A stretch of DNA of 64,000 bases from Thermoanaerobaculia bacterium. Its GTDB lineage: Bacteria > Acidobacteriota > Thermoanaerobaculia > Gp7-AA8. The DNA lies in contig DASVQE010000052.1 in the NCBI GenBank assembly GCA_036389275.1, positions 33,680-97,679 of the forward strand, written 5' to 3'. The notes beneath the pieces are model-generated. The model saw only the letters and a program-made list of their open reading frames with translations, searched no databases and was not told the origin of the DNA. Shown one piece after another: positions 15,247 through 64,000 of the stretch (within the stretch, counting starts at the first letter, position 1; every line of letters starts with the position of its first letter). Position numbers and translations under genes: made by a program.

Positions 15247-15260
15247 TCGCAGGTGCTTCG

Positions 15261-42959: not shown

Positions 42960-43012
42960 GCGCGCGCGCTCACTGAGTCCGTTTTCGGTCCCGTAGTCGA
43001 AAGGAATATCGC

Positions 43013-46000
43013 TTGCGCCCAGGATCCTCGTTTGCCTTTTCCGCCGTAGCGGCCGTCGCCGCCGCGCTCGTGTTGTCGTTCGCGGCGCCGCTTGCCGCGC
43101 AGACGCCCATCACCGCGTACAGCGACGACTTCCAGTCATACGGCACGCAGAGCAATCCTCCCGGATGGGTCGACACGTCCATCGGCGCATCCGCTCCGGA
43201 AGCGGCCGGTCTGTACAAGACCTGGCCCGATCCGACGCAGGGCAACAGCGGACCGAATGTCGTCTACGGCACCAAACAATCGTCGGGTCAACCCGAGGGA
43301 AACAACCCGCGTGTTGGAACCTTCTCTACGTACACGGCGAAGAGCTTTGCCGGCGCGGGACGCTTCGAATACTCCGGCCGTTTCCTGCGCACCAGCGCCG
43401 ACACGCGCGTCGGCATCACCTTCTTCTCGTCGTATCCGCAGGCCGACCGCTACTACCTGATCGGCCTCTGGTCGCACCCGCAGCAGACCACGAAGCTGAC
43501 CATGCAGCTCTTCGGCTTCGGCGGTCCTGCGCCGCAGCAGACCACCGTCAGCGACTTCACCCCGGAAGTAGGGAAGTGGTATCGCTTCCGCGTCCGCGTC
43601 GACGACGTCGAAGGAAAGACCGTCATCCGCGGACGCTTCTGGCTCGACACGAACGCCGAGCCGCAGACGTGGCACATCGATGCGGTCGACGCGAGTGCCG
43701 GCCGGCTCACCTCCGGACGCATCGGCATCTGGTCGGCGGTGCGCGGCGACGCGTACGTCGACGACATCTCCGCGCAGTCGCCGGTCGATCACGCGCCGCC
43801 GACGATCTCCTTCTTCGTCGGCGACACGCCGCTCACCGACGGCATGAAGTTCCACACCGCCGTCACGCCGCGCATCGTCGTGACCGACGATCTCTCCGAA
43901 GTGCGCTGGACCGCGCAACTCGACGGCGGCAACTTCGTCACGCCGGTCACCGGCCAGGGCGATCACATCCTCCGCGTCGACGCGAAGGATGCAGTCGGCA
44001 ACACCGCCTCGAAGTCGGTCACGTTCTACATCGACACCATTCCTCCGCGGCTCACCATCGTGAAGCCGGCCGACGGCAGCATCACCAGCAGCGACGTCAA
44101 CATCTCTCTGCACGTCGATGACGCGTCGCTCCCGGCTACGTTCGCGGCGACGCTCGACGGCGCCACGTGGGACGTGACGCGTCCGGTCTCCGCCGAAGGG
44201 CAGCACCAGCTCACCGTCACCGCCTTCGACGCGGTCGGCCTCGCCTCGGCGCCGCAGACGGCGACGTTCATCATCGACAAGACCGCGCCGGCGTACGAGC
44301 TGTTCGCGAACGCCAAAGCCTTTCCGGCGGACGGCTACGTCTTCGGCGAAGACGTGACCATCACCATCGTCCCGAAGGATCTCACGCTCGACAAAGTCTC
44401 GCTGCTGCTCGACGGCGCACCGTACACCGCCGGCACGCCGGTGACCGACGAGCGGAAGCACACGCTCGGCGGCACCGTCACCGACAAAGTCGGCCACGTC
44501 ACCACCATCGCCGAGCGTACGTTCTGGATCGATAAGACCGCGCCGACCGTCGAGCTCCTCGGCAACGGCACCGCGATCAAGCAGTACTACGACATCGCCT
44601 CGCTCGTCGCCGAGCTGAAGATCAGCGACGTCACCGCCACGCGCGTGACCGCCACGCTGAACGGCGCGCCGGCGAACCTGCCGGTCACGCTGACCGGCGA
44701 AGCGACCTACGTCGTCGCCGGCAGCGTCACCGACGCCGCGAACCACGTCACGCCGTTCGGTCCCACCACCTTCGCCATCGATCGCAGCGCGCCGCAGATC
44801 ACGCTCTCTGCGAACGGCGCGGCGTTCCCGGCCAGCGGCCACATTTTCCTCGGCGACGTCGCGCTCGCGGTCGACGTCAAAGACCTCACGCTGGCCGACT
44901 ACAGCGTCACCCACGACGGCGCCGCGGTCGAGCTGCCGCTCACGCTCACCGACGAGTTCCGCGACCACGTCATCAAAGTCGTGGCCACCGACAAGCTCAA
45001 TCACAGCGCGTCGGTCGGACCGCTGACGTTCACGATCGACAAATTCGCACCGGTCGTGGCCGTGACGAACAACGGCGCGGAGCTTACGGACGGCCGCTAC
45101 TTCAATCGTCCCGTCCGTCCGGTCATCAACGTCACCGACATCACCGCTACCACCGTCACCGCGACGCTGAACGGCCAGCGCTTCGAGTCGGGGAGCGAGA
45201 TCACCGCGGACGGTGCGTACACGCTCGCCGGCAATGTCGCCGACGGCGCGGGCCGCAGCACGCCGATCGGCCCGATCGCGTTCACCATCGACACCACCGC
45301 GCCGACCGGCGTCTTCGTGGAAGGCGACAACAAGCCGTTCCCCGACGGCAAGACGCTCAACGTCGAGGCGATCCGCGCGTCGGTGAAGATCACCGACGCC
45401 AATCCGCTCCCGGCCAAGATCCTGCTCGACGGCGCCGAGTACGCGGAAGGCACGCCGATCACGCTCGAAGACGCGCACACGCTCACCGCGACGCTCGTCG
45501 ACAAGGCCGGCAACAGCGGCAGCGTGCCGCCGGTGAGCTTCCGCATCGACCGCACCCGGCCGGTGCTGACGCTCTTCGCGAACGGCGACGTCTTCCCGGC
45601 GAAAGCGTTCGACACGCGCTTCGACGTCGCGGTGACGTACAAGGTCGAGGACAAGTCCGCCGTCACCATCGCCGCGACGCTCGACGGCGCCAACGTGACG
45701 CTGCCGGTGACCATCAGCGACGAGCGCGTGCACACGCTCGTCGCGACGGCGACCGACGCCGCCGGCAACGTGGGCACGGCCGGCCCGTTCACGTTCACCA
45801 TCGAGAAGACGCCGCCGAACGTCGAGGTGCTGCTCAATGACGCGCCGGCCGGCCTCAACGCGGTCTTCAAGGTCGACGTGCGCGTGAAGCTGCAGATCAG
45901 CGCCGGCCTCACCTCGCGCAGCGCGAGCATCCTCCTCAACGGGCAGTCGTACGTCGAAGGAACGGCCATCACCGCGCCCGGCGTCTACGTCGTCACCGGC

Positions 46001-49000
46001 ACCGTCACCACCGCCTCCGGCGTGACCGTGCCGATTCCGGAGACGACGTTCACCATCGACAAGACCGCGCCCGACGTGACGCTGAAGAACCGCGACCGCG
46101 ACTTCGAGGCGAACGGCTTCCACTACAACGCCGACGTCGTGCCGAACGTCACCTGTCATGACGACCTCACGCGCTGCACGACGGAGTTGAAGGTCGACGG
46201 CAACGACTGGAAGAACGGCGATCCGATCACCGCCGAAGGCGAGCATGCCGTGGTCGCCGCCGCCACCGACACGGCCGGGAATCGCAAGGAGCTGCCGGCG
46301 GTCACGTTCGTGCTCGACAAGACGTCGCCCGCGATCACCATCACCGCTCCCGCCGAAGGGCAGACCGTCAGCGCGCCGCGCGTGGTCGTCAGCGGCACGT
46401 CGGACGACGCGGTCTCGATCGACGTGAACGGCACGCTGGCCACGATCGACGCGGCGGCGAAGACGTTCACCACCACGCCGGTCGCGCTGCTGGAAGGCGA
46501 GAACGAGATCGTCGTCGTGGCCCTCGACCAGGCCGGCAATGCCAGCACGCGCACGGTGCATGTCGTCGCCGACACGCGCGCGCCGCTGCTGGCCGTGCAA
46601 AGCCCCGCGCCGAATGCCTGCCTCAACGCGCAGCAACTCGTCGTCCGCGGAAGCGTCAGCGATCCGTGGATTCAGACGGTGAAGGTGACGGTCGACGCCG
46701 ACGTCGTCGCGAATGCGCTCGACGCGCAGAAGCAGACGTTCACCGCGACGTTCGCCAACATCGCCGAAGGGCCGCACCGCATCTCCGTCGAAGCGACCGA
46801 CACCCTCGGCCACCGCACCGTGGCCGCGCTGCAGGTCATGATCGACCGGACCGCGCCGCTCATCGACATCTTCGAAGGCGCCGCGCCGTTCACCGCGCGT
46901 CTGGTCAATCATCCGGTCGCGCTCTCGATCCGCGCGCGCGATGGCGATCCGAATGTCGCCGTCGCTGCGAGGCTCGGCGCGACGCCGTACGTCTCCGGCA
47001 CGCCGATCGCCGCGCCCGGCGCCTATCACCTCGACGTCCTGGCCGAAGACTGCGCCGGGAACCAGTCCACGCAGCCGCTCGACTTCGAGATCGATCTCCT
47101 CGCGCCGGCATTTGACACGCTGGTGCCGCCGAACGGCGCGACGGTCGGCGCGCTGCCGCAGTCGATCACCGGCCATGTGAGCCGCGATGCGGTGCGCGTC
47201 GAGATCGAAGGCACCGCGATCGCCGCCGCGCCGTCCGCTGACGGCAACTTCGTCCTCGCGCTCGGCAGCATCGCCCGCGAAGGCGCGAACCAGTTCGTGC
47301 TGCGCGCGACCGACGCCGCCGGCAACGTGGCGCAGGTTCCGTACGCGTTCACCGTGCACTCGGCGGCGCCGACGATCCAGATCTACGAGAGCGGCAAGCC
47401 GCTCAGCGACGGCGCGCTCTTCAACCGTCCGGTCACGCCCGAGGTGCGGGTGAGCGACCCGACGGCGCAGGTGACCGTGTTGATCGGCGGACAGACGTGG
47501 GACCAGAAGCCGCTCACGGCGGACGGCACCTACACGATCTCCGTCACCGTTCGCGATGAATTGCAGCGCACCGCGGAGGCGAGCCGCACCTTCACCATCG
47601 ACCGCACTCCGCCGGTCGTGAAGATCACCAAACCGCTCGCCGGCACCGTCAGCAGCGACGTCGTCACGATCGAGGGAACGGCCGGCGACGCGGTGAGCGT
47701 CGACGTGCACGGCGCGATCGTGGCGCCCGGCGCCGGCGGCGCGTTCCGCCGCGAAGGCGTGCGCCTGGAGGTCGGTCAGAACGACCTGGTCGTCTCCGCC
47801 ACCGACCGCGCCGGCAACACCGCCGCGGACAGCGTCCTCGTGACGTGGCTCGGCAGCGGTCCGGCCATCGTGATCACCTCGCCGCGCGATGCCTCACTCA
47901 CGAACCGTCCGCGCATCGACGTCACCGGGCACGTCCTCGGCGCTCTCGGCGGCGGCGAGGTCGTGGTCGGCTCGAAGACCGCCACGCTCGATGCCACCGG
48001 CGTCTTCCGCGTCACCGACTATCAGCTCGCCGGCGGCGAGAACGTGATCACCGCGCGCGTGCCGAACGGCGCGTCCGCGTCCGTCACCATCACCGCCGAC
48101 TTCAAGGCGCCCGCGTTGAGCGTGCTCGCGTCGGGACAGCCGCTCGCCAACGACGCGCATTTCCCGGGCGAAGTGTCGATCTCCGTCAACGCTTCCGACG
48201 ATCGCAACCTCGCGCTGACGCGCGTCACCATCGACGGCGCCGAGCCGCCGTCGCTTCCGGCGAAAGTCTCGTCGACGGGCGGCCACGTGCTCAACGCCCG
48301 CGCACGCGACGAGGCAGGCAACGAGACCGTCGTCGAGCGCACCTTCTTCATCGGCTCCGGCGGCGGAGGCAGCGGCTGTTCGATCGAAGAAGTCGATCCT
48401 GCCGACGGCGCGACCGTCGCGCCGTCCGCGAACGCGACCACGGCGAGCGTGCGCATCACCGGCCGCGCGTCGGGTGCCACCGCGGTCACGATCAACGGTG
48501 CTGCCGCGGACGTCGCCGACGGCACGTTCGCGAAAACCGTCGAGCTGCCGAGCGAAGGCGCGAACGCCATCGGCATCCGCTGCACCGACGCATCGGGCGC
48601 GCTCTCCGAGCCGAAGAACCTCGTCTACTACCGCGTCTCCGGAAATCCGAGCGTGCGCATCACCGCGCCGGCGGAAGGCGGGACCACCGGCGACAAGAGC
48701 GTCGTGGTGACGGGTGAAGTCGGCGCCGACGTGGTCAGCATCGACGTGAACGGCATCGCCGGAACGATTCGCGACGGCTCGCCGCGCACGTTCCGCGTCG
48801 AGAACGTGACGCTCACCGACGGGACGAACATCCTCGTGGCGCACGGCCGCAACAACGCCTACCGCGTCGGCACGCACTCGGTGCGCGTGCTGTCGCTGCA
48901 GACCGCGCCGCAGATCCGCATCACCTCGCCGGAGGCCAACAGCGTCGCCGGCGGCGGCAAGACGACCGTCGGCGGCACGTACTCGAATCTGCTGCCGCAG

Positions 49001-55000: not shown

Positions 55001-58000
55001 TTCACCGTGCGCCTCACGTACGCGCCGAGCGGCGAGTCGCACCTCGTGCAGCGCGTCACCGTCGTCAATCCCGCACTCGACTTCCGCTGGCACGGCGATG
55101 CGTTCAAAGGGGAGACGCTCGACATCCCGAACGTGCTCGCGCGCCCCGAGGATCGGCTGACCATCCTGCGCAACCTCACGACGTACGGTGTGGTCACGCT
55201 GTTCGGTTACGGCGCCGCCGTGTACGACCTGAACGCGATGGAGACGAACGACTTCAAGCTCCGTTGCACCGGCACATTCCTCGGCCAGCACGGAACCGCC
55301 TGCGCGGCCGCGCTGACCCAGCGCGCGCTTCCCGAAAAGATCGTGAACACGACCGGGAGCAACGAGGGCTGCAACCTCGAGCACGACATGAGCGACGACC
55401 TCACGTACTCGCCGGAGATCTTCGGCATCGTGCGGTCGGTGCCGACCGCCAGCGGCGGCGTGAACGTCTCGCCCGACATTCACATTATCGGCGTGCGCAC
55501 CAAGAACGGTCTCATCGACGTCGTCTCCGCGCTTCCGTCGGAGGACGACGGCGGCCTCACCGACGGCTGCGAGAGCGGCGCGAACACCGTCCCGGTCGAA
55601 GATCATCCCGCGCTCTCCGCGATCATCCAGCGCGTGAGCACGACCCAACGCCAGACCGGCGGCGCGCTCTATCGCTGGGGCATCTCGTCCACCCAGAACG
55701 TGGCGGGCGTGCGCGGCTCAGCGCCGAACACCGACGTCCATCGCGACTATCTGCTCGTTGCCGCGAACAAGTGGGGCATCCTCGTCTTCGAGATCGGCGG
55801 CACTCCGCCGCCCGCCGGCCCCGGCTACGGCACCCTCGGTCTGGAGAGCCTGGTCGACGTGATCTGGATCGCCGCCGGCGCCGCCGCCGTCGCTCCGATC
55901 GAAGGCACGAACCTCGCCGCCGTCATCGATCTCAAAGGACGGCTGCTCATCCTCGATCTCGCCAACATCGACGAGCGCTGGGGCCCGGCCACCGCGGCGA
56001 ATCCGTCGCCGCTGCTGCCGCCCGGTCCGTTCAAGATCCCGACCGCGGCGATGAACGCCGCCGGCGGCGCCAGCGGAGAGATCGGCGTCGACGATCCGCG
56101 CGTCGTCTACAAGAGCGCGAACAAGTTCACCTCCGGCACGCTGCCGCCCATCGTCGATCCCGACACCGGCATCGCCTTCGGCGGCGACGTGCTCACGCAG
56201 AACATGCGCGTGCGCGCCGTGCTCGATCCGAAGATCGAGTTCCTGATCGATGCCGGCAACGGCCTCCAGCCGACCAACGGCATCACGCCGCTCGGCGTGG
56301 CCAAGCCGTCGAGCGCATCGACCACTCCTGCCGGCGCGCTCGGCGCGTTCCGCGTGCGCGTGACGCTGCCCGGCTCACTCGCCGAAGTGCTCGCCGATCA
56401 GAAGGTGCATCTCGCCGTCGAGAGCGAGCTCGTTCCGGGAGCGGTCACGCCGCAGTCGGCGCGTTCGCTGCCGCGCGCACATCTGCGCGTCAACGACCGC
56501 GAGGGAACCGTCGATCCGCGCAAGGTCACCGACTTCACGCTGCGTCGCGCCATCGCCTTCACGCCGTCGATGGAGAACACGTATCGTCACCAGCGCGGCT
56601 TCAACCGCCTGCTCTCGCCGTGGATCGTCGCTCTGGCCGATCCGCGCGCGAGCGAGCGCGTGACCGGCGACGCCGCCGCGAAGACCGCCGACGGCTGCCT
56701 CGAATGCGAGCGCCCGAGCGGCCTCAAAGGAAAGACCGAGGCCGACGGCGTGTACGAGCTGTACACCGCCGGCCGCTACATCAGCGCGCGCCTCGACAGC
56801 CATCAGCCCGGCGTGCTCGCCGTCGACGATCTCCCCGATTTCTACAAGTACCTCGCGGAGAAGTCGCGGCTCGACGTCCGCATCCCGACCACCATCGCCG
56901 ACACCGTGCGGCCGAAGGCGGCGCTCATTCCGCCGCAGCACGCGCCGCTCGCGCAGGGCACCATCGACGGCACCGTGTTCGTCCACTCGGGCGAGCTCGG
57001 CGTCGACGCGGCCGATCTCTACATCACCGGCCGCGGCCCGGCCGACCTGATGCTCACGCGCTCCTATCGCTCGCGGACCATCGGCGGCACGCCCATCGGC
57101 CTCGGATGGGACGCCTCGTTCCTCCGCCGCATCCGGCCGCTGCCCGACGGCAACGTCGAATACCGCGACGCATCGGGCGACATCTGGCTGTTCAAGAAAC
57201 CTGCGCAGGGACCGGGCGCCGCGCCGCCGGCAGCGCTGCAGGCTCTCGAGGCATCGGTCGGCGTGCGCTTCCGCTACACCGCTCCTCCCGGTCTCTACGT
57301 GAGCCTCATGCGCTCCGACGACGGCTGGACGATGCTCGACGACAAGTGGCGCATCACGCGCTTCGACAACTTCGGACGCATCACCGCCGAGACGGACGAG
57401 TTCTGGAAGGCTGCCGACGTCGGTGCCGGCGCGGCCAGCGGCAATCAGTTCCGCTATCTCTACGACATTGAAGGACGCCTCGCCCAGATCGTCGATCCGA
57501 TCGGCCGCATCACCACCATCCGCTATTGGGAGAAGAACCCCACCGGCGCGAACGTGAACTGCACGAACGTCGGCGCCAAGACCAATCCGTGCGCGTATCC
57601 CGGCCTGATGAAGGAGATCGTCGACTGGCGCCGCCGGTCGGTGCTCTTCGAGTACGACCACGTCGGCCGCCTCATCGCCGTGCAGCTCCCGAACGTGAAA
57701 GCGATCGACGGCGCGCCGTCGAGCTACGACTTCAGCACACCCGACAAGCGGCCGCGCATCCGCTATCAGTACGACAGCGCCACCGCGGCGTACCCCGGCG
57801 ACACCGCCTCGCCGCAGGAGTTCACCGACTTCATGCACTACGCGGCGAATCTCGCCGAGATCGTCGAGCCGGCGGACGAGTCGTCCGGCGACGCGCGCGT
57901 GAGGTTCGAGTTCTTCCGCACCACCGACGAGAAGCGCGACCGCCTGCACTTCGAGCGCTGGCCGTGCGGATCGCGCGCGCCCGGCTGCACGGAGACCGAA

Positions 58001-61000
58001 GCCGACTTCGCCTATCAGGGAAACATCCTCAGCATCAAAGACATGCTCGGACAGGTGTGGGAGTACGCGCTCACGCAGGACTCCGAGCAGCGGAAGCACA
58101 TCCAGAGCGTGACGGCGAAGGACGTCCCGACCTTCCACGTCTCCGCGAGCTCGACCAACATTCCGCTCGTCCTCACCGCCACCGGCGCGGATCTCGTCAC
58201 GAAGTACGAAAACTTCAGCGCCGACGGCATTCCGACGCGCACGACCTACCCGAGCGGCCGCGTCGTCGACCTGACCATCGCCGCGCCGCAGTCGAATCCC
58301 AACGCGCACTGCAAGCAGTTACAGAGCGTCAACGACAACGGCGGCGGCGCCTCACGCAACACCACCATCACCTACGAAACGCAGCAGACCGCGCTCTGCA
58401 CCGCCACGGCGTTGCAACGCGGCAACGACAAGCGCGAGACCGAGTCGCCGAGCCGCGATCGCGACAAGACCACCACCGTCGATGAGACCGCCGGCGTCTC
58501 CGTCGAAACGACGTACGACTCGTTCGGCCGCCCGACCATCGTCACCCGCAAGGGCAGCGGCACGGACTCGATGAAGACCGTCTACACGTACAAGCCGAAC
58601 AACAGCGGCGACCCGATCGCGTGGTCGCGTCTCGCCGACATCACCGGCGGCAACAACGACACCTACCAGAACTTCACGTACACCAGCGACAGCGTCGGCG
58701 GCGAGACCGTCACCGTCCACGACACGAAGCGCAAAACCACCACCACCACGCGCTACGACGCCTCGGGCCAGCCGATCTACCGCAAGCTCGACGACGACGA
58801 CTTCGGCATCCTCAGCGAAGAGAAGATGGCGTACGACGCCAGCGGCCGTCTGACGTGGACCAGCACCACCGCTCCCACCGGCACGTTCGATACGACCGTC
58901 AAATACGATCCGCTCGGTCGCGTCGACACGACCACCACCACGCGCAACAACGTGATGGGCGTCGACAAGGACCTCGAGGTGCGGCACACCTACGATCTCG
59001 CCGCGAAGATCGTCACGACCACCGATCCGGCCGGGCCGGGCGGCGCGCCGGCAGCGCAGCAGATCACCACGCTCGACGCCCTCGGCCGTCCGATTCGCAT
59101 CGAGCACCGCGCCTCGAGCCCGCCGCCGGGCGGCGGCGACACGCCGACCATCCTGCAACTGCTCGCGTACGACAAGCACGGCGCGGTGTCGTATCAATCC
59201 GACACGGTCCGCGACGCCTCGATCACTTCGCGCGATGGCCTCGGGCGTCCTGCGTTCACGCTGCGCCGCGACGGCCTCAGGACCACGTTCAGTTGGAGCG
59301 ATTGGGATCAGCCGCAGCAGACGACCGTCACGGCCGGCTCGGCCACGGTGTCGAGCACGCGGCAGTTCTTCACCGACGAGGGACAGCTCTACGCGACGAA
59401 CGAGAGCGTCGACACGCGCGTGCGGCGCACGCGCCGGACGTGGCTCGCCGGCGGCCAGCAGGTGCTCGACCGCACCGGCATCGGCTTCGGCCTCAACGAC
59501 GACACCGCACCCGGCGCGGCGCGCGGCACGCGCACCACCACCGATCTCGCCGGCCGCGTCACCGACGTGGTGACCGGCGGCCTCGGCGCCGGCGACACCG
59601 ACATCACCAAGATCTATCACCACACGAACTTCGCCGACTTCCGCGGCGACGTCGCCACGCTGGTGCACGAGATCGAGCCGATGCGCAACGTCACGATCGA
59701 TCACCGCCAGACGCTCGACGGACTCGATCGCGTCCGCAACGCGAAGATCAGCGACCACTACGAGACCACCACCACCTACGACGTCGCCGGCAATCTCGAG
59801 CTGGTGACGCCTTCCGGCGAAGGCGCGACGCGGATGTTCTCCGACAGCCGCGGACTGACCTATCGCACCGAGCGCCCCGACGCGCCGGACAACGTCGTGC
59901 TGCGCTTCTTCGACGAGCGCGGCGCGCTGCGCCGCATCACCGACGAGACCGGCGACATCACCAACTACATCACCGACGATCTCGGCCGCGTCGTGCGCGT
60001 CGACTATCCCGACACCACGCACGAAGAGACCCGCTACGAAAACAAGACCGGCCTGGTCACAGCTACGCGCGATCGCGCCGGGCAGTGGCTGTCGTACAAC
60101 TTCGACGACGGCGGCCGCGTCACCCACATCCGCCTCGGCGAAGATCCGAACAACGGCCCGGTCGTCACCGAGATCGAATACAACGACGCCAAACGGATCG
60201 CGCGCGTCGCGAACAAAAACGGCGCCGTCGAGTACGAAGCGTACGACGACCTCGGACGTCCGACGCTCACGCGCACGATCCGCTACGCGAACGAGTCGGG
60301 CCTCAAGCCGGCGCCCGACCGCATCGTCTCCGACTCGCACACGCAGACGCACGCCTGGTCGGTGTTCGGCTCGGAGCGCTCCTCCTGGAGTCTGCCCGTC
60401 GCCGGCACCAGCCCTGCCGCGCAGAACGGTACGAGCTGGCGCACCGCCGTGATCGAAACGCGCGACGCCGGCGGCAACCTGGTGCTGCAGCAGGCCAACG
60501 GCGCCGACATCGCCACCGCAATCCCCGGCGGCATCGGTCGTGTGCTCGAGCACGATCGCGCGCTCTCGACCAGCGGCATGCTGGCGACGTCTTACGGATT
60601 CACCGACGCGTCCGGAAGCGGCCCCGATCCGGGCGATCCGGCGATCGCGCCGAGCGGCATGCTCTCGAGGTCGGAGACGAAAGTCGGCAGCCGCGTCCTC
60701 GCCGGTACGCAGACGTTCCCCGACCGGTCGCTCCGCGTGCGCACCGCGCACGATCTCGCCCTCGGCCGCTCGTCGAAATGGGTGTACGACGGGCGCGGGC
60801 GGCTCACCAGCAGCAAGCTCCTCGTGCCGCAGGAAGATCTGCTCACGACTCCCGCGATCGCCGATGTGCTGAGCGGATCGGAGTTCCGCGAGGAGCGTCA
60901 AACCGAAACGATCTTCGGACCGCTCGAGCACGGACGCCTCGGCCTCGCGCGCTCGCTCGAAGTCGAGCCGGCGTCGTGGCGCGCCGACGAAGATCCGGGA

Positions 61001-63190
61001 CACCAGATCGACAACCGCACCATGAAACTCGACGGTGCGGACGTGCTGCAGCGCGACTACGCGTTCGCCGACGGACGCCGCTCCACCGACGGCGTCTGGC
61101 AGAGCACCTACGACGAGTTCGGCCGCCTCACGCGCATCGAAAGCAGCTCGCGCCGCATCGAGTACGTCTACGGTCCGACCGACCGCATCATCGGCCGCAA
61201 CGCCTACATGGTGGGCGGCAGCGGCTGGACGCTCGAGACGCGCAGCACCGTTCTCGCTGCGGACGCTCTGCCGGCGCAGACGACGTTCGTGTGGGACCCG
61301 ATCGTCGACCGCCTCGTCGCGATTTACGACGCCGGTGCTTCGACCGGCGCGACCGCCGCGCCCGATGCCGGACTGCTGCGCCAATACGTGCACGGCGACG
61401 CCGGCTACGACGATCCGGGCGAAGTGTTCGTCGCCTCCACACCCGGCGGCACCGCCACGCGTTACCTCCCGGTCTTCGACGAAGCTGGTACGGGCTCGCT
61501 GCAGGCCGTGGTGGACGGAGACGGCCACGTCGTCGAGCGCGTGCTCTTCGGCGACTCGTACGGCGCCGCGCCGCGCTTCCTGCACGGCCCGGTGGTCGAG
61601 AAGGTGACGTTCACCGCCAAGCGCGATCCGGCCGGCACGATCACGGAGGCCGAGGTTCGCGTCCGCTTCAGCGAGAACGTCGCCTCGAGCGGCCTCGCCA
61701 ACGCCATGCGCCTCCGCGCGCTCGATGCAGACGGCGAGCAGGTCGCGCTGCACGGCGGCGCGCCGGAGTTCCCCGACCCGACGAGCGACGATCACCACGA
61801 GCTCCGCTGGCGCCTCACGCCGGGCGACTGGTCCGCCCTCGTCAACGCCGCCGGCGCCGAGTCGATCGAAGTCGCCGTCTCCTCATCCCTCCGCACCGAC
61901 GCCTGGGGCAACACCCCCGTCCAGGAAGTCCCCGACTGGGCCCACACCCTCTTCGGCGCCACCAGCACCACCGCCTACCCGGTCATCGTCACCGCCCTGA
62001 TCACCACCCTCACCACCCCCCCAGCCGCCGGAATGCCGCAGCCGCCCCTGTACGAGATCAAGTCCCTCTACATGGCGGCCTCCCCAACCTCCCGCACCCA
62101 CACCCTAACCGGCTTCAAAGCCGCCCCCTTCACCGACCCCGCCACCGGCCTCGCCTTCTTCCGAGCCCGCTGGTACGACCCCGAAACCGGCACCTGGCTC
62201 ACGCCGGATCCGGTCGGTTACGACGATTCCTCGAACCTCTACGCGTTCGCAGGTGGCGATCCGGTGAATAGCTCGGACCCGACGGGATTGTGCCTCGGTT
62301 TCGGACAAGGCACTTGCGCCGATTGGGCGAACGCAGGGAAGAAGAAGCTCGATGCAGTTCGACTCTTCGTCGACAAGCACACCGGCTCGACAATTTTCGA
62401 CGTCGGAGTCAACGCGCAGCTTGGCTTCGCACTCGATGTCGTCGATACCTTCGTGTTGGATCCGTTACGTTTTGGCGAAGCAACGGGTACGGCGATCGGC
62501 AGCGGCGCCGGCGCGGTGTCAACCACGCTTGCTGTCGTTCAGGACGTCGGGCGCGGCGCTGCACTCGCGGCAGGTGCCGGGACAGTGATCAGGGCCGCAG
62601 CTCGATTCACTGTCGCGGTGCGTTCGGCCGTAGCGTTCGACTCGCTTGGAGAAGCTGCAGCTCGCGGCTTGGACGAGGGAGCAGCGATCGCGGCGCGCGA
62701 GCTTGCGCCGGACATTTCCGCCGCGGCAGTTCAAGAACAGCGCGTTCTGGCCAATATCGCGGAGAGTGCCGAGGCGCGAGCCGCGTCAAACTTCCCGACC
62801 ACCGCAGCGGCCGCAGATGAGCTGACCGGCATTACCAACCGCGCGGCAAAGATCACCGACCGTCTGATCAAAAACAACAGTACATATTGGGCGAGGGTGT
62901 ACAACAATCCTGCGCTGCGCGGCCAGCGATTTGCGAGAGCCTTTGCGCGAAATCCGAATTTTGCACGTAGTCTTATCCGTGGAAACATCATGGATGACGT
63001 CGTCAAGCAGCTCGCTCAGAAATCGGGCAAGCTGCCGTTCATGCGGATCACGCCTCGTGGCGCCCGCGGAGCAGATTTCATCAACCTTTTCCTCAACAGC
63101 GCGTGGGACGTGACGACAGCCGGATCGTGGGCGCGACATGTGAGTCGTTACGCGAAGGAAATGTATCGACTTTATCCGTTAATCTATTAG
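43013..63190 (+). CDS. giant secreted RHS/YD-repeat polymorphic toxin (6725 aa) with a ~4600-aa N-terminal LamG/Ig/SbsA stalk and a C-terminal toxin domain of unknown family
   Basis: TTG start at 43013 preceded by AAGGAA at 43001-43006. Signal peptide MRPGSSFAFSAVAAVAAALVLSFAAPLAAQTP. Contains a LamG-like domain, 18 tandem Ig-like domains, SbsA Ig-like and CarboxypepD_reg-like domains and a few LVIVD-like repeats. The RHS region begins at IGLGWDASFLRR with many YD repeats (YLYDIEGRLAQIVDPIGRITTIRY, FEYDHVGRLIAVQLPN, YTYDLAAKIVTTTDPAG, YEAYDDLGRPTLTRTIRY). The RHS core ends SDPTGL. Confidence 0.9.
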   Translation: MRPGSSFAFSAVAAVAAALVLSFAAPLAAQTPITAYSDDFQSYGTQSNPPGWVDTSIGASAPEAAGLYKTWPDPTQGNSGPNVVYGTKQSSGQPEGNNPRVGTFSTYTAKSFAGAGRFEYSGRFLRTSADTRVGITFFSSYPQADRYYLIGLWSHPQQTTKLTMQLFGFGGPAPQQTTVSDFTPEVGKWYRFRVRVDDVEGKTVIRGRFWLDTNAEPQTWHIDAVDASAGRLTSGRIGIWSAVRGDAYVDDISAQSPVDHAPPTISFFVGDTPLTDGMKFHTAVTPRIVVTDDLSEVRWTAQLDGGNFVTPVTGQGDHILRVDAKDAVGNTASKSVTFYIDTIPPRLTIVKPADGSITSSDVNISLHVDDASLPATFAATLDGATWDVTRPVSAEGQHQLTVTAFDAVGLASAPQTATFIIDKTAPAYELFANAKAFPADGYVFGEDVTITIVPKDLTLDKVSLLLDGAPYTAGTPVTDERKHTLGGTVTDKVGHVTTIAERTFWIDKTAPTVELLGNGTAIKQYYDIASLVAELKISDVTATRVTATLNGAPANLPVTLTGEATYVVAGSVTDAANHVTPFGPTTFAIDRSAPQITLSANGAAFPASGHIFLGDVALAVDVKDLTLADYSVTHDGAAVELPLTLTDEFRDHVIKVVATDKLNHSASVGPLTFTIDKFAPVVAVTNNGAELTDGRYFNRPVRPVINVTDITATTVTATLNGQRFESGSEITADGAYTLAGNVADGAGRSTPIGPIAFTIDTTAPTGVFVEGDNKPFPDGKTLNVEAIRASVKITDANPLPAKILLDGAEYAEGTPITLEDAHTLTATLVDKAGNSGSVPPVSFRIDRTRPVLTLFANGDVFPAKAFDTRFDVAVTYKVEDKSAVTIAATLDGANVTLPVTISDERVHTLVATATDAAGNVGTAGPFTFTIEKTPPNVEVLLNDAPAGLNAVFKVDVRVKLQISAGLTSRSASILLNGQSYVEGTAITAPGVYVVTGTVTTASGVTVPIPETTFTIDKTAPDVTLKNRDRDFEANGFHYNADVVPNVTCHDDLTRCTTELKVDGNDWKNGDPITAEGEHAVVAAATDTAGNRKELPAVTFVLDKTSPAITITAPAEGQTVSAPRVVVSGTSDDAVSIDVNGTLATIDAAAKTFTTTPVALLEGENEIVVVALDQAGNASTRTVHVVADTRAPLLAVQSPAPNACLNAQQLVVRGSVSDPWIQTVKVTVDADVVANALDAQKQTFTATFANIAEGPHRISVEATDTLGHRTVAALQVMIDRTAPLIDIFEGAAPFTARLVNHPVALSIRARDGDPNVAVAARLGATPYVSGTPIAAPGAYHLDVLAEDCAGNQSTQPLDFEIDLLAPAFDTLVPPNGATVGALPQSITGHVSRDAVRVEIEGTAIAAAPSADGNFVLALGSIAREGANQFVLRATDAAGNVAQVPYAFTVHSAAPTIQIYESGKPLSDGALFNRPVTPEVRVSDPTAQVTVLIGGQTWDQKPLTADGTYTISVTVRDELQRTAEASRTFTIDRTPPVVKITKPLAGTVSSDVVTIEGTAGDAVSVDVHGAIVAPGAGGAFRREGVRLEVGQNDLVVSATDRAGNTAADSVLVTWLGSGPAIVITSPRDASLTNRPRIDVTGHVLGALGGGEVVVGSKTATLDATGVFRVTDYQLAGGENVITARVPNGASASVTITADFKAPALSVLASGQPLANDAHFPGEVSISVNASDDRNLALTRVTIDGAEPPSLPAKVSSTGGHVLNARARDEAGNETVVERTFFIGSGGGGSGCSIEEVDPADGATVAPSANATTASVRITGRASGATAVTINGAAADVADGTFAKTVELPSEGANAIGIRCTDASGALSEPKNLVYYRVSGNPSVRITAPAEGGTTGDKSVVVTGEVGADVVSIDVNGIAGTIRDGSPRTFRVENVTLTDGTNILVAHGRNNAYRVGTHSVRVLSLQTAPQIRITSPEANSVAGGGKTTVGGTYSNLLPQTLAIAGGTNAPAADVVALSDTTGTFVFRGVGLAAGARTLTITGRNAAGVAATASLVVNSDPAAASIEIAAPSDNAYVPASEPVTVTGAYAGASGTARVEINGVAATVDPTASTYAGSAQHTGAPLTPVVARLIDANGSGPAASIMVRKLAGPLRVRSTFPADGAEGVDPGVLLLIDFSAPLDRATLSAIQLRSGSTPVDGTLRVDDSVVIFTPSTLLAPGTSYTVTIPATLKDVAGNAIDKASSFSFTTTVSAPSTPPQLDPIAITGCPATVSITGSAPPFARLRLEVGTIALSGQADASGRFTMAFPLSGRSGYQSGHLTIVGSDGSRSPEAPVSFRMDCAAPSVVGASYDRNANVLTIAFSKPVAAPTLVVGSSIVLTTSDNNSIGGTVALSGAIATVTPASDLRDKSFTLEVQTSVTDTAGNHLGSPFPQTFSLDGGDAPLPGDGSGFITGEVYDATSGRPLRGATVSVEVPRSAFARVPSVTSHAHLTTSGDVEMSKETDPRGRYTLPLPEGAHTIKAGSPQHTTVWRQIVVPAGAGVVPIDIRLTRRGERKSAATLPLTLQDGGGALTVTAPVKLTVTGGVASQAQVALTSVGAQSLAGLLPLGFSPIASAEVAVFGADGAASFDAQVNGELEFTLPSAAISAAHQTLSLVRYDSERDEWRTLIAVMAPAAGDAWRAPITSAGAYGVVYRDQASTLRQPPAPAAGATLQPATETCATSATPCVLVRKEFDIEPPVVPPSGRAVAKLQIAGEDAATFPSGTAVQAYVNEVLTLSSGDTVVDPPFTTDVLLYRTLDGKVGIGEFLIEPSEQARREVLETGVDQVKILQYPGRLDRGSLIGSEGGRVPGDSVTNVEIPAGATSEQLRATVATLKPENLGVAIAGFDVVGGFDLTLTRVATPPQTDADGDGVPDPAPALQLSRAARATINVDTAKLASPDAQLILVEVVNQSAWGAFYRLAVPMTRLDTPANGVTLVRYTSQSVNPASLAVDGIVREGRFLLLAAKAPIAFASGALRSTATGPYLPDMRVNSVMAGGAAYGVSDVTRASGVFALPIAAAPAPSFSITPRHARFGVGTAFTAAAPAAGETVAIGDWLFVVQPLRLTNVTPADGEIVPVAPITIKADFDLPIDTLSLQNAITVATTDGAIPLGGRIERDAADDHRVVFTSTGTVSASTTYRVTIQPTVRATNGAVLGQVHTFLVRTEGLPRTGEIHPERIRITLPDAQGHSRIFGDAKAIPAGFQVVAQRPDKGFRSVYDATAGANGDFSFVVGDRNDSDRLDLGDVVEVQILNLAFNVVATVQLTPFVTEDGKGFVAAANRDTTFVSTQGVAVTVAAGTFDKATLVTTDLNDSKAAFAAVPNFDQELHWVKTLDLHFDGTAKQRIEVSIPRPANLPLDGHDYLIGLLGQSSRGPRIAIEALLHPEGDKLTTALPPESSGANLQTKAAAMSGSGAAAAQFCMPGVFGAGSNAIFEMGNIGAEAVGWGFIAPIQQYMEVFNDMFQATYLPSLAYQTAKCRAIPVVKGKPFHLIGVDPDTGSQIFNTPYSAIDDINSIVAIDNPFPDTTGPFPIFGAPFRVERLEAPAPADNDGNGSIDPGEFKGRGFVVTRTESGTLTVTNDSNAAAQDVLPENTTVRLYNATRSILSTAATVGGGGSFTITSTASEGDLLFLYIGGRDVAPDATMNIVFSEPIAVGTIPTGADDPTRNQIINTYLHGVIKLEQVFDTGAVDISSNAVFRADSGNRRVLIDLPATFVRDGRYRITALASLTDPKNNRLAERRDKNGTVIGTPAADITFDFKVRPGPTSDHAFTLQPTATQTGGSLKDLARFGNLVFVAALDGGLLAYDISEPSMSNGTLPIAVVPTNWANSGVQVSDFWSVAADHHGRIYGGGFQASFSVVRGYRVEDFLAARDGQLNCPGGPHTNCISHGSAIVGWRPGVGVGMPLNAGWMVTNQPSAYPRKIKLLEQDDEQSATLDELKSNTGDGVEILDEVSAGNGYHRFTVRLTYAPSGESHLVQRVTVVNPALDFRWHGDAFKGETLDIPNVLARPEDRLTILRNLTTYGVVTLFGYGAAVYDLNAMETNDFKLRCTGTFLGQHGTACAAALTQRALPEKIVNTTGSNEGCNLEHDMSDDLTYSPEIFGIVRSVPTASGGVNVSPDIHIIGVRTKNGLIDVVSALPSEDDGGLTDGCESGANTVPVEDHPALSAIIQRVSTTQRQTGGALYRWGISSTQNVAGVRGSAPNTDVHRDYLLVAANKWGILVFEIGGTPPPAGPGYGTLGLESLVDVIWIAAGAAAVAPIEGTNLAAVIDLKGRLLILDLANIDERWGPATAANPSPLLPPGPFKIPTAAMNAAGGASGEIGVDDPRVVYKSANKFTSGTLPPIVDPDTGIAFGGDVLTQNMRVRAVLDPKIEFLIDAGNGLQPTNGITPLGVAKPSSASTTPAGALGAFRVRVTLPGSLAEVLADQKVHLAVESELVPGAVTPQSARSLPRAHLRVNDREGTVDPRKVTDFTLRRAIAFTPSMENTYRHQRGFNRLLSPWIVALADPRASERVTGDAAAKTADGCLECERPSGLKGKTEADGVYELYTAGRYISARLDSHQPGVLAVDDLPDFYKYLAEKSRLDVRIPTTIADTVRPKAALIPPQHAPLAQGTIDGTVFVHSGELGVDAADLYITGRGPADLMLTRSYRSRTIGGTPIGLGWDASFLRRIRPLPDGNVEYRDASGDIWLFKKPAQGPGAAPPAALQALEASVGVRFRYTAPPGLYVSLMRSDDGWTMLDDKWRITRFDNFGRITAETDEFWKAADVGAGAASGNQFRYLYDIEGRLAQIVDPIGRITTIRYWEKNPTGANVNCTNVGAKTNPCAYPGLMKEIVDWRRRSVLFEYDHVGRLIAVQLPNVKAIDGAPSSYDFSTPDKRPRIRYQYDSATAAYPGDTASPQEFTDFMHYAANLAEIVEPADESSGDARVRFEFFRTTDEKRDRLHFERWPCGSRAPGCTETEADFAYQGNILSIKDMLGQVWEYALTQDSEQRKHIQSVTAKDVPTFHVSASSTNIPLVLTATGADLVTKYENFSADGIPTRTTYPSGRVVDLTIAAPQSNPNAHCKQLQSVNDNGGGASRNTTITYETQQTALCTATALQRGNDKRETESPSRDRDKTTTVDETAGVSVETTYDSFGRPTIVTRKGSGTDSMKTVYTYKPNNSGDPIAWSRLADITGGNNDTYQNFTYTSDSVGGETVTVHDTKRKTTTTTRYDASGQPIYRKLDDDDFGILSEEKMAYDASGRLTWTSTTAPTGTFDTTVKYDPLGRVDTTTTTRNNVMGVDKDLEVRHTYDLAAKIVTTTDPAGPGGAPAAQQITTLDALGRPIRIEHRASSPPPGGGDTPTILQLLAYDKHGAVSYQSDTVRDASITSRDGLGRPAFTLRRDGLRTTFSWSDWDQPQQTTVTAGSATVSSTRQFFTDEGQLYATNESVDTRVRRTRRTWLAGGQQVLDRTGIGFGLNDDTAPGAARGTRTTTDLAGRVTDVVTGGLGAGDTDITKIYHHTNFADFRGDVATLVHEIEPMRNVTIDHRQTLDGLDRVRNAKISDHYETTTTYDVAGNLELVTPSGEGATRMFSDSRGLTYRTERPDAPDNVVLRFFDERGALRRITDETGDITNYITDDLGRVVRVDYPDTTHEETRYENKTGLVTATRDRAGQWLSYNFDDGGRVTHIRLGEDPNNGPVVTEIEYNDAKRIARVANKNGAVEYEAYDDLGRPTLTRTIRYANESGLKPAPDRIVSDSHTQTHAWSVFGSERSSWSLPVAGTSPAAQNGTSWRTAVIETRDAGGNLVLQQANGADIATAIPGGIGRVLEHDRALSTSGMLATSYGFTDASGSGPDPGDPAIAPSGMLSRSETKVGSRVLAGTQTFPDRSLRVRTAHDLALGRSSKWVYDGRGRLTSSKLLVPQEDLLTTPAIADVLSGSEFREERQTETIFGPLEHGRLGLARSLEVEPASWRADEDPGHQIDNRTMKLDGADVLQRDYAFADGRRSTDGVWQSTYDEFGRLTRIESSSRRIEYVYGPTDRIIGRNAYMVGGSGWTLETRSTVLAADALPAQTTFVWDPIVDRLVAIYDAGASTGATAAPDAGLLRQYVHGDAGYDDPGEVFVASTPGGTATRYLPVFDEAGTGSLQAVVDGDGHVVERVLFGDSYGAAPRFLHGPVVEKVTFTAKRDPAGTITEAEVRVRFSENVASSGLANAMRLRALDADGEQVALHGGAPEFPDPTSDDHHELRWRLTPGDWSALVNAAGAESIEVAVSSSLRTDAWGNTPVQEVPDWAHTLFGATSTTAYPVIVTALITTLTTPPAAGMPQPPLYEIKSLYMAASPTSRTHTLTGFKAAPFTDPATGLAFFRARWYDPETGTWLTPDPVGYDDSSNLYAFAGGDPVNSSDPTGLCLGFGQGTCADWANAGKKKLDAVRLFVDKHTGSTIFDVGVNAQLGFALDVVDTFVLDPLRFGEATGTAIGSGAGAVSTTLAVVQDVGRGAALAAGAGTVIRAAARFTVAVRSAVAFDSLGEAAARGLDEGAAIAARELAPDISAAAVQEQRVLANIAESAEARAASNFPTTAAAADELTGITNRAAKITDRLIKNNSTYWARVYNNPALRGQRFARAFARNPNFARSLIRGNIMDDVVKQLAQKSGKLPFMRITPRGARGADFINLFLNSAWDVTTAGSWARHVSRYAKEMYRLYPLIY
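43100..43800 (+). other. N-terminal LamG/concanavalin-like jelly-roll domain (DUF1080-like)
   Basis: FQSYGTQSNPPGWVD...GKWYRFRVRVDDVEGKTVIRGRFWLDTNAEPQTWHIDAVDASAGRLTSGRIGIWSAVRGDAYVDDIS. The terminal G.IG(I/L)....G...(F/V)D.(I/V) pattern is characteristic of this lectin-like fold. Confidence 0.5.
43790..48350 (+). repeat. 18 tandem ~85-aa Ig-like domains (about 255-bp period)
   Basis: Linker motif (T/A)F.ID(K/R)T(A/P)P recurs at about 44030, 44270, 44520, 44770, 45030, 45280, 45540, 45795, 46050, 46305, 46560, 46835, 47085, 47345, 47595, 47850, 48095 and 48340. Each unit also carries a T.TD.AGN.S/T motif. Confidence 0.8.
49450..54400 (+). other. region with at least four SbsA-type Ig-like domains (about 49450-49750, 50025-50310, 52300-52620, 54040-54400), a CarboxypepD_reg-like domain (about 50340-50600) and unassigned sequence
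   Basis: First SbsA-type example: LRVRSTFPADGAEGVDPGVLLLIDFSAPLDRATLSAIQLRSGSTPVDGTLRVDDSVVIFTPSTLLAPGTSYTVTIPATLKDVAGNAIDKASSFSFTT. CarboxypepD_reg-like example: GFITGEVYDATSGRPLRGATVSVEVPRS. LVIVD-like examples at about 54460-54540 (GNLVFVAALDGGLLAYDISEPS) and 55750 (GILVFEIGG). Confidence 0.55.
57100..61800 (+). other. RHS/YD-repeat shell region of the 6725-aa toxin
   Basis: Begins with the RHS start motif G.GW (IGLGWDASFLRRIRPLPDGNVEYRDASGDIWLF) and has dense YD repeats to about 61700. Confidence 0.85.
61990..62290 (+). other. RHS repeat-associated core with canonical DPxGL autoproteolysis motif
   Basis: FRARWYDPETGTWLTPDPVGYDDSSNLYAFAGGDPVNSSDPTGL. The DPTGL codons lie at about 62276-62290. 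Confidence 0.8.
62291..63187 (+). other. C-terminal polymorphic toxin domain (~299 aa), family not recognisable
   Basis: CLGFGQGTCADWANAGKKKLDAVRLFVDKHTGSTIFDVGVNAQLGF...NRAAKITDRLIKNNSTYWARVYNNPALRGQRFARAFARNPNFARSLIRGNIMDDVVKQLAQKSGKLPFMRITPRGARGADFINLFLNSAWDVTTAGSWARHVSRYAKEMYRLYPLIY. Lower GC than the host background. Confidence 0.5.
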
Positions 63191-63192
63191 CC

Positions 63193-64000
63193 ATGCCGGA
63201 GAAGCAGAAGGCGGTTGCGAGGATTTTGGCCGCGCAAACAGCGCAGGAAATGCGAGAGATTGCAGAGCGGTACGACATGATCGCGGGCGGGAAGATCGAC
63301 CTTCGCGATACCAGGTGCCGATTCAATCACGCTGAGATTGATCTTAAGGAATTCCTGCTCACCGGCTGTGATCTGTCGGGGTCGACTCTGACGAACTGCA
63401 TGGGAGAGGGCGTCAGCTTCGACGGGTGCAGGCTGAAGCAGGTTCGCATCACGGCCGAGAAAGGCAGGAAGGTGTCGTTTCAGGAAGCTTCGTTCAATGA
63501 AGCTTTTTTGGAGGACGTCACAATCGGTCCTCGCACACTCGATCTCTCTCGGACTATGTACCGGAAGGCGCGTCTGCGAAACGTCACCTTCACAATGGGA
63601 AAGCTTTTCAATGCGGATTTCACCGGCGCGCTCTTCGAGGATGTGTTTTTTCGAAGCGCTGAATTGAAGAGCGCAAGCTTCCGAGGGGCGAGTCTTACGA
63701 GAGTCTCGTTTGAAAAGGCAACGCTCGAGGACGCTGATTTCTCCCAGGCGGAGTTTCATCAAATGGAGCACTGGGGAGAGCCCGATTTTTCCGGCGCTAA
63801 AATCAGCGATGATCTGCGGTATAGGTACGGGATTGTCCGCGATCCGTCCTCAAAGATTGTTGCGCTCATCAATAGCGGCAGGTTCAATCAAGACGAAGCC
63901 GCTGTACTGAGCGCCTTTCTCGAGCGCAACAGAGACTTTCTCTCGAATCCCGAAGTGATGCTGATCGGGTCCGAGTACGATATCGACGCTGGCCTGTTCG
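63193..64000 (+). CDS. pentapeptide-repeat protein, candidate immunity protein (at least 269 aa; runs off the 3' end of the window)
   Basis: Own translation from ATG 63193, 2 nt after the toxin TAG, open to the window end: MPEKQKAVARILAAQTAQEMREIAERYDMIAGGKIDLRDTRCRFNHAEIDLKEFLLTGCDLSGSTLTNCMGEGVSFDGCRLKQVRITAEKGRKVSFQEASFNEAFLEDVTIGPRTLDLSRTMYRKARLRNVTFTMGKLFNADFTGALFEDVFFRSAELKSASFRGASLTRVSFEKATLEDADFSQAEFHQME... Tandem A(D/N)(L/F)xx pentapeptides. GC about 50-55%, well below background. Not in the supplied ORF track because there is no stop in the window. Confidence 0.75.
   Translation, partial: MPEKQKAVARILAAQTAQEMREIAERYDMIAGGKIDLRDTRCRFNHAEIDLKEFLLTGCDLSGSTLTNCMGEGVSFDGCRLKQVRITAEKGRKVSFQEASFNEAFLEDVTIGPRTLDLSRTMYRKARLRNVTFTMGKLFNADFTGALFEDVFFRSAELKSASFRGASLTRVSFEKATLEDADFSQAEFHQMEHWGEPDFSGAKISDDLRYRYGIVRDPSSKIVALINSGRFNQDEAAVLSAFLERNRDFLSNPEVMLIGSEYDIDAGLF

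Follow-up and report, generated by a model that had tools for sequence, protein, structure and literature searches.

The open reading frame (ORF) at 43013..63190 on the plus strand of the 64,000-nucleotide stretch of DNA analysed here (the window; contig DASVQE010000052.1 of a Thermoanaerobaculia bacterium) probably encodes a secreted, Sec-dependent polymorphic toxin of the rearrangement hotspot (RHS) type, which carries an exceptionally long stalk and belongs to a distinct family of the Acidobacteriota. The product of 6,725 amino acids (aa) combines the features by which Rhs/YD polymorphic toxins are recognised, namely shell repeats, an autoprotease core, a variable tip and a downstream candidate immunity gene, and the association of a Sec signal with RHS or β-propeller repeats is a catalogued polymorphic-toxin layout (PMC3482391). 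The part preceding the cage measures ~4,650 aa and far exceeds that of characterised RHS toxins, as stated in the original prediction, which was made from the sequence before the present analysis. The C-terminal features on which the assignment depends are listed here with the basis of each call in brackets.

56981..57184, plus strand: DUF6531 (Rhs N-terminal plug-type), aa 4657-4724 (Pfam PF20148)
57185..61576, plus strand: YD/RHS-repeat shell, aa 4725-6188 (Pfam, TIGR01643, PDB profile)
61577..61942, plus strand: conserved non-YD insertion, aa 6189-6310 (family alignment)
61943..62290, plus strand: Rhs-associated core with autoproteolysis motif, aa 6311-6426 (TIGR03696, PDB Rhs-core matches)
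62291..63190, plus strand: polymorphic C-terminal tip, aa 6427-6725 and stop codon (divergence among relatives, GC content at third codon positions)
62690-63187, plus strand: toxin domain proper, aa 6560-6725 (relatives, invariant residues)
63193..64000 and past the window end (10001-10852 of locus L012), plus strand: pentapeptide-repeat gene, likely the cognate immunity gene (position, homology, Pfam)

The RHS cage and its autoprotease core

The cage is limited to the C-terminal part of the protein, as had been predicted, and takes up ~2,070 aa in this analysis; a scan with domain hidden Markov models (HMMs) recovered DUF6531, the RHS/YD repeats and Rhs_assc_core as described. DUF6531 (PF20148) scores 26.3-26.4 bits against a cut-off of 24.1 bits and is followed by a shell of ~1,600-1,770 aa that is recognised by Pfam RHS_repeat (47.7 bits) and TIGR01643 (28 bits). 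A profile of the shell (aa 4630-6440) matches solved Rhs cages over several stretches (8h8a, E 3.9e-32; 8qja, E 2e-30; 7q97, E 2e-29), the bacterial teneurin-like protein (TLP) 9pt5 with E 5e-17 and metazoan teneurins with E 3e-7 or weaker; the match to Tc toxins is confined to the Rhs core. The core itself scores 57.7 bits with TIGR03696 (cut-off 32.5 bits), and the Rhs_assc_core match covers aa 6373-6426. Its motif comprises R6384, DPVG at 6399-6402 and, after 19 residues, DPTG at 6422-6425 followed by L6426, and is conserved in all seven family members examined. Since the motif is both intact and conserved in these members, the aspartyl autoprotease is expected to be functional.

From the last YD repeat (...FGDSYG) to the Rhs core runs a stretch of 122 aa without YD repeats. 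This insertion ahead of the core, which had been noticed in the original prediction, is real and conserved in relatives: it is kept in the giant proteins of loci L008 and L005 and in the relatives P0005, P0007 and P0011, and partly deleted in P0012. It is possibly Ig-like, the hints being faint (FlgD_ig at E 0.008 and Big_5 at E 0.06 in per-member Pfam searches, one member each). An assignment to Big_5 found no firm support: hhalign against four of the protein's own Big_5/Big_5-like segments gave at most 24% probability, and a search of the insertion profile against the PDB returned nothing significant. A profile search of the other giants of the window found no homologue of the insertion. The insertion had also been described as an echo of the first toxin of the window, which holds for its position but not for homology, as the profile finds nothing in that 2,981-aa RHS protein and the insert there is of a different, tandem-repeat kind. 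The first toxin (553-9498, plus strand; DUF6531, RHS repeats and an Ntox16 tip) carries, at ~7750-8500 and just 5' of its Rhs core, two tandem ~195-aa non-YD repeats (CDPPR.IMLGW.DG...GKVWFDRAG) that are unrelated in sequence to the insertion described here.

The polymorphic tip and its putative immunity gene

The tip comprises 299 aa, corresponding to a cargo of ~30 kDa. In collinear relatives the tips are unrelated to that of the protein and diverge straight after the DPxG motif, with lengths of 226-309 aa across the family. The GC content at third codon positions (GC3) stands at 0.90 for the shell and drops to ~0.65 for the tip and the gene behind it; this break, located at the DPxGL cleavage motif, is of the kind classically seen between Rhs core and tip. 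For overall GC content the values are 0.68 (shell), 0.58-0.63 (tip) and 0.55 (immunity gene), in a comparison of 62291-64000 with 56990-61550. This compositional break indicates that the tip/immunity cassette would have been acquired recently.

For the toxin domain proper, 88 relatives were found among 1.84 billion representatives, all of them C-terminal and several capping other RHS proteins. Eight residues are invariant in 43 of these relatives (D6661, G6686, D6688, D6699, T6701, T6702, H6709 and Y6713), and the invariant D/D/D/H set suggests that the tip is a putative metal-dependent hydrolase. A PD-(D/E)xK reading of the tip was a motif-level impression with no family match and was set aside. 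A Gly/Ala-rich "pre-toxin" segment was likewise dropped as a family trait because it is inconsistent (G+A fraction 0.16-0.40). Among the tips of the relatives, the one at locus L008 (about 21836-22762) shows a HAE...CPNC motif that is deaminase-like by eye, and the one at locus L005 (about 21872-22753) an IPDF...FDIKP motif that is PD-(D/E)xK-like by eye.

The pentapeptide-repeat gene begins with an ATG 3 bp past the toxin stop codon; as it extends beyond the window end, the list of ORFs did not include it. Its complete product (P0129, 283 aa, 100% identical), annotated to a Thermoanaerobaculia MAG (metagenome-assembled genome), has matches to Pfam Pentapeptide; a 194-aa ORF on the opposite strand (63187-63771, minus strand) is antisense to the gene, has no Pfam match and was treated as spurious. 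The pair recurs at locus L010, where P0038, an orphan tip homologue with 77% identity, is separated by 2 bp from a pentapeptide-repeat gene downstream of it, whose product shares 63% identity with P0129. A tip homologue (P0040) and an immunity homologue (P0142) are both reported on a 3,457-bp Logan contig, which suggests a possible third co-occurrence of the pair. By its position and its homologues the pentapeptide-repeat protein is likely the cognate immunity protein. Pentapeptide-repeat proteins such as Qnr, MfpA and AlbG are DNA mimics. Because the immunity protein is of this type, the most likely target of the toxin would, as a working hypothesis, be DNA or a DNA-processing enzyme. A 2026 preprint describes a pentapeptide-repeat antitoxin that is paired with a type VII secretion system toxin and structurally similar to an Rhs immunity protein. 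The pairing of an unnamed toxin domain with an immunity protein of the DNA-mimic type has seldom been reported.

The conserved middle module

Between the stalk and the shell lies a module (aa 2440-4650) that is conserved in the family and comprises the following parts.

50354..50650, plus strand: CarboxypepD_reg (transthyretin-like, TTR) domain, aa 2448-2546 (Pfam PF13620)
50651..54379, plus strand: ~10 family-specific β-sandwich domains (MG/Ig/FN3-like), aa 2547-3789 (AlphaFold2, Foldseek)
54380..55972, plus strand: 7-bladed β-propeller with insertions (LVIVD/YVTN-like), aa ~3790-4320 (predicted)
55973..56980, plus strand: β-rich connector domain or domains and a low-confidence linker, aa 4321-4656 (secondary structure from AlphaFold2)

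Giant proteins from metagenome-assembled genomes (MAGs) of Thermoanaerobaculia, Vicinamibacterales and other Acidobacteriota are 33-41% identical to the middle of the protein (aa ~2470-4650) over 86-100% of its length. Single-sequence searches of Pfam and the PDB with the middle module came back empty. The predicted CarboxypepD_reg-like domain was found at aa 2448-2546, where PF13620 scores 36 bits against a cut-off of 32.3 bits, and ~1,240 aa of β-sandwich domains, with a Big_5 domain at aa 3097-3191, separate it from the propeller. An AlphaFold2 model of aa 2440-3639 built from the family alignment (m7cda8f062e46) is confident, with a predicted local distance difference test (pLDDT) score of 81.7, and its Foldseek matches include TEP1, A2ML1, the adhesins Bap and SiiE, pilins and S-layer proteins.

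The propeller is predicted to have 7 blades and to be YncE/WD40-like, not NHL. The LVIVD-like repeats of the original prediction coincide with it, even though Pfam LVIVD stays below threshold in the protein (16 bits against 20.2), and according to the model they form a real 7-bladed propeller of the YncE/LVIVD type. The connector that follows has a conserved CxxC (C783/C786 of alignment A4), a PDB profile search of this region gave no match, and the linker has low pLDDT in the AlphaFold2 model (model residues 990-1062).

Head domain and stalk

The features upstream of the middle module, including the ribosome binding signal, are as follows.

43001..43005, plus strand: Shine-Dalgarno-like AAGGA (sequence reading)
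43013..43099, plus strand: Sec-type (signal peptidase I) signal peptide, aa 1-29, ...FAAPLAA|QTP (inspection; comparable signal peptides in relatives)
43100..43798, plus strand: conserved N-terminal head domain, aa 30-262 (35-69% identity in long-form relatives)
43796..48631, plus strand: 18 tandem ~85-aa Ig-like repeats, aa 262-1873 (iterated HMM, Pfam, NCBIfam)
48632..50332, plus strand: further β-sandwich domains (Glucodextran_B, Big_5/SbsA-like), aa 1874-2440 (Pfam)

The N-terminus, MRPGSSFAFSAVAAVAAALVLSFAAPLAA|QTP, reads on inspection as a signal peptide for Sec export and cleavage by signal peptidase I, without a lipobox Cys. The domain that follows had been labelled LamG, a label that was dropped after neither Pfam (searched with the piece and with nine family members) nor a nine-member family profile against the PDB supported it at aa 30-262; judged by its conservation the segment appears to be a family-specific head domain. 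In two relatives an NHL/TEN_NHL propeller and a TIG domain stand in its place (P0014, aa ~150-320; P0017, aa ~30-280). This makes the distal end of the stalk a modular one and suggests that it may be the ligand-binding end. The NHL/TEN_NHL matches in relatives were also considered as support for a teneurin-type propeller and rejected, being located in the head of P0014 and P0017 and not in the pre-shell propeller.

Behind the head, Pfam recognises Big_13, Glucodextran_B, Big_5, Big_3_3 and related Ig-like families over aa ~260-2440. The iterated HMM arrives at the predicted count of 18 tandem Ig-like domains, each of ~85 aa and with E of at most 1.8e-9, in an array (aa 262-1873) that is interrupted by one stretch of ~87 aa without repeat assignment (aa 1612-1698) and whose repeats fall to Pfam Big_13, Big_3_3 and Glucodextran_B and to NCBIfam OmpL47-type barrels. 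SbsA-type Ig-like domains are present as well, in the form of Pfam Big_5 matches with their best stretch at aa 2148-2245, and Glucodextran_B was matched in six stretches. Upstream of the propeller ~37 β-sandwich domains, the TTR domain included, were shown. At roughly 3-4 nm per domain, a value taken from general Ig-domain dimensions, the fully extended stalk could by this rough estimate reach up to roughly 100-150 nm.

With such a composition, the protein might instead be a giant adhesin or surface-layer component in which the RHS module plays a structural or social role (kin recognition, motility) and the tip is not a deployed toxin. Adhesin-type β-sandwich domains make up ~70% of the protein, with fold matches to Bap, SiiE, pilins and S-layer proteins; its head domain can be swapped, and the gene is syntenic with that of another giant surface-type protein. 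This reading is nevertheless very unlikely, considering that the autoprotease motif is intact and conserved, that the tips are polymorphic and compositionally foreign, that a co-varying downstream gene recurs with the tip and that the tip has invariant acidic and His residues, all of which read as hallmarks of toxin-immunity selection. Giant adhesins of the SiiE/Bap/LapA type share with the protein the long tandem Ig/MG-like arrays and the fold matches of the stalk, but they are exported by type I secretion or otherwise and lack an RHS cage or a toxin-immunity cassette.

The family and the integrity of the gene

Two giant proteins are collinear with the toxin at 35-36% identity: the 7,468-aa protein of locus L008, on a 428-kb contig, over aa 258-6439 and the 6,092-aa protein of locus L005 over aa 934-6457. 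The short forms P0005, P0007 and P0011 (~3,700-3,970 aa) start at a point matching aa ~2,570 in the toxin and have signal peptides of their own; the middle module together with the RHS part is therefore a conserved unit, to which the Ig array and the head appear to be a variable extension. So far as sequence comparison goes, these proteins form a distinct family centred on the Thermoanaerobaculia, the database name of which is merely "Ig-like domain-containing protein".

That the gene is one intact giant, as originally proposed, is borne out by its reading frame, which runs through 6,725 codons with zero internal stops, by the identical product obtained from two pipelines and by relatives of similar size. 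The TTG start has the AAGGA 7 nt in front of it, gene calling at JGI and at ENA yields one and the same 6,725-aa protein, and P0042 of a representative library is identical to it. The possibility that assembly or annotation fused an adhesin gene with an RHS gene was considered because the sequence is metagenomic and arrays of Ig repeats are easily mis-assembled. The window, however, belongs to a contig of ~151.6 kb that was recovered in both the JGI and the ENA assemblies, the GC content is even over the stalk, the middle module and the shell (0.68-0.70), the 18 repeats are diverged and not identical, the 7,468-aa and 6,092-aa proteins, which come from independent MAGs, are collinear over the junctions and a further member of 7,365 aa lies on another metagenome contig. 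An artefact has thus been largely refuted, and its probability is close to negligible. At locus L009 (1763-21258; MAG MFD09212.bin.1.4) the homologous locus is split into overlapping ORFs of 2,651, 1,494, 1,912, 741 and 1,163 aa, which reflects either a pseudogene or frameshift errors of assembly.

Relation to teneurin-like proteins

TLPs are defined by a superfold of FN-plug, NHL and YD-shell that lies behind BIG/TTR/TIP domains; they are known from six phyla including the Acidobacteriota and carry a cargo of ~15 kDa, and their delivery mechanism is unknown (PMC13018210). TTR and TIP domains are found N-terminal to the superfold in 96% of TLPs, and in BiTLP of Bacillus inaquosorum (2,237 aa; 9pt5/9ifo) the adhesion domains occupy 397 residues and the FN-plug is reached by about residue 720 (PMC13018210). 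The teneurin-like layout put forward in the original prediction finds support, as the order of TTR domain, β-sandwiches, β-propeller, YD shell and toxin parallels that of teneurins and TLPs (PMC13018210). The further claim that the protein resembles teneurins much more than bacterial RHS proteins is not supported, since the shell is nearest to T6SS-type Rhs proteins (those of the type VI secretion system), the propeller is not of the NHL type and the plug is DUF6531-type; the teneurin analogy is one of layout only.

Like TLPs, the protein combines a Sec signal without dedicated injection machinery, N-terminal Ig-like adhesion domains and a TTR domain with a propeller ahead of the YD shell, a DPxG...DPxG motif, a polymorphic toxin that the shell would encapsulate and an adjacent putative immunity gene. 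This shared order, the occurrence of TLPs in Acidobacteriota, the match of the shell profile to the solved TLP 9pt5 (E 5e-17) and faint precomputed TEN_YD-shell matches would be in keeping with a true bacterial TLP with a divergent FN-plug, NHL propeller and YD-shell, and hence with direct kinship to the ancestors of metazoan teneurins. We consider this unlikely, in view of a shell that is closer to T6SS-type Rhs cages (E 4e-32) and of a pre-shell family profile that found nothing among PDB sequences, not even a TLP or teneurin chain at E of at most 10. The protein has no Pfam match to NHL, TEN_NHL or FN-plug, and none to TEN_YD-shell at E of at most 0.01. Its plug is DUF6531-type and follows the propeller, whereas the FN-plug of TLPs precedes it; the propeller is 7-bladed and YncE-like and not a 6-bladed NHL propeller; and the tips of 226-309 aa (~30 kDa in the protein described here) are about twice the TLP average of ~15 kDa. 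A pre-shell part of ~4,650 aa and the extra conserved domain from the last YD repeat to the core set it further apart from TLPs. The protein is TLP-like in layout and probably in lifestyle, but neither the FN-plug nor the NHL propeller that help to define TLPs was detected in it.

Relation to other RHS and Tc toxins

The closest shells are those of T6SS Rhs effectors (Pseudomonas protegens RhsA, 7q97; 8h8a, 8qja and Tse5; E 4e-32 to 4e-20); like the protein, these effectors have a plug of the DUF6531 type at the N-terminus, an autoprotease in the Rhs core and a polymorphic tip that is paired with an immunity gene. In place of a PAAR, VgrG-binding or prePAAR/transmembrane region, however, the protein has a Sec signal and a ~4,650-aa stalk of extracellular type, and its shell is ~50% longer than the matched solved chains (1,065-1,152 aa). 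Pfam and NCBIfam gave no PAAR or VgrG match in the protein, and the window ORFs examined include none for a T6SS. Because of the signal peptide and the absence of PAAR, it is not regarded as a T6SS Rhs effector.

WapA of the Gram-positive Bacillus subtilis is about 2,300 aa long and anchored to the cell wall. With it and other Sec-dependent RHS toxins the protein shares the signal peptide, the repeats and the C-terminal toxin with an immunity gene (the "T2SS/Sec-dependent" layout, T2SS denoting the type II secretion system; PMC3482391); it differs in coming from a diderm phylum, in being three times longer and in having no recognised anchor. The TcB-TcC components of Tc toxins (TcdB2-TccC3, 6suq; YenC2, 4igl) likewise unite an RHS cocoon, a propeller and a ~30-kDa autoproteolytically cleaved toxin, but the sequence match is limited to the Rhs core, and their propeller is inserted within the shell, whereas the propeller of the protein precedes the plug. 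No SpvB domain or TcA homologue was matched, and the protein is not a Tc toxin.

Proposed mechanism, possible partner and significance

After Sec export, the protein would be displayed on, or released from, the cell surface, where the stalk and the swappable head would mediate reach and binding. The Rhs core would cleave after DPTGL, leaving the tip free inside the closed shell until its delivery to a neighbouring cell, where the putative metal-dependent hydrolase could attack DNA or a DNA-processing enzyme; the pentapeptide-repeat protein would shield the producer and its kin.

Several points weigh against the reading as a secreted toxin. No lipobox, two-partner secretion (TPS) domain, PAAR/VgrG or C-terminal sorting domain was found that could account for outer membrane transport or anchoring, so that surface display is an assumption. 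The toxin domain was assigned to no family by Pfam, with the tip, 43 relatives and nine carrier proteins as queries, or by a PDB profile, and its PD...DxT motif is without the canonical Lys of PD-(D/E)xK nucleases; the activity of the toxin is for these reasons a guess. Furthermore, the entire evidence base consists of metagenome assemblies of uncultured Acidobacteriota, and the JGI and ENA assemblies of the contig may share one read set.

Directly upstream of the toxin gene lies a second giant.

15261..42959, plus strand: 9,232-aa protein with signal peptide, CarboxypepD_reg, Ig domains and LVIVD propellers (Pfam)

This ORF contains at least five CarboxypepD_reg domains, Big_5/Big_6 domains and many LVIVD propeller repeats, has no RHS part and ends 53 bp before the toxin gene. 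Homology of the toxin to it was considered and dropped after BLASTP found none. Over its C-terminal 900 aa, the 9,232-aa protein shares 35% identity with the ORF that immediately precedes the RHS giant at locus L005; it is thus a possible partner of the toxin, and the two genes may form a conserved gene pair. In Tc toxins, the propeller at the pole of the cocoon is the docking and gating element. By that precedent the two giants could constitute a two-component apparatus, loosely comparable to TcA and TcB-TcC, in which the pre-shell propeller docks the partner for attachment or translocation. The genes are on the same strand and 53 bp apart, both proteins have signal peptides and the pair is syntenic at locus L005. 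There is nonetheless a slim chance at best that this reading is correct: the protein resembles TcB in the Rhs core only and TcA not at all, synteny was seen at only one other locus, and short-form and other loci (L011) have no such partner within 10 kb. Genes or domains of T6SS, TPS, PAAR or TcA were found neither in the toxin nor in the 9,232-aa neighbour nor among the window ORFs examined.

A more far-reaching reading than that of a secreted polymorphic RHS toxin sees the protein as a member of a separate, undescribed class of surface YD-shell toxins, with a teneurin-like layout independent of TLPs, a stalk of at least 100 nm with a swappable head, an extra C-pole domain acting as release sensor or gate and possibly the 9,232-aa protein as partner. 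This is conceivable but doubtful; if true, it would mean a contact-dependent killing device that works without injection machinery. How machinery-independent YD-shell toxins reach their targets and release their cargo is posed as an open question in the 2026 TLP paper (PMC13018210). The Thermoanaerobaculia family could offer a second solution, distinct in sequence but following the logic of TLPs overall. Its members come in short (~3,900 aa) and long (6,000-7,500 aa) versions with a head that can be swapped, arrange propeller and plug differently and carry an extra core-adjacent domain. Comparison with TLPs could reveal which architectural elements are essential to display and release. The practical weight is moderate, the family being represented by metagenomic sequence of uncultured Acidobacteriota alone.

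Neighbouring genes and mobile context

The immunity gene of the first toxin of the window may be either a 171-aa ORF that overlaps the 3' end of the toxin gene (about 9399-9914) or a 217-aa ORF in another frame (9318-9971) with a sub-threshold match to DUF6714 (22 bits against 27). At locus L011 (1-22638) the 7,365-aa long-form RHS gene is accompanied, in this order, by three small genes, an rve transposase gene, the gene of the short form P0007 (3,958 aa) and a 254-aa gene. Loci L010 (1-9425) and L011 have mobile blocks of one kind at their flanks, which encode helix-turn-helix proteins, SymE_toxin, a ~1,000-aa DnaG/Toprim primase and tyrosine recombinases, a setting that hints that the toxin cassettes may travel with an integrative element. 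Downstream of the toxin described here, in locus L012, the nearest 10 kb showed no orphan RHS tips. Past the immunity gene (11299-18911) there are an alpha/beta hydrolase gene and a block of small genes on the opposite strand, among them those for a DUF87 (HerA-like) ATPase, for an N6/N4 DNA methyltransferase and for an integrase of phage type, which may form a mobile or defence islet.

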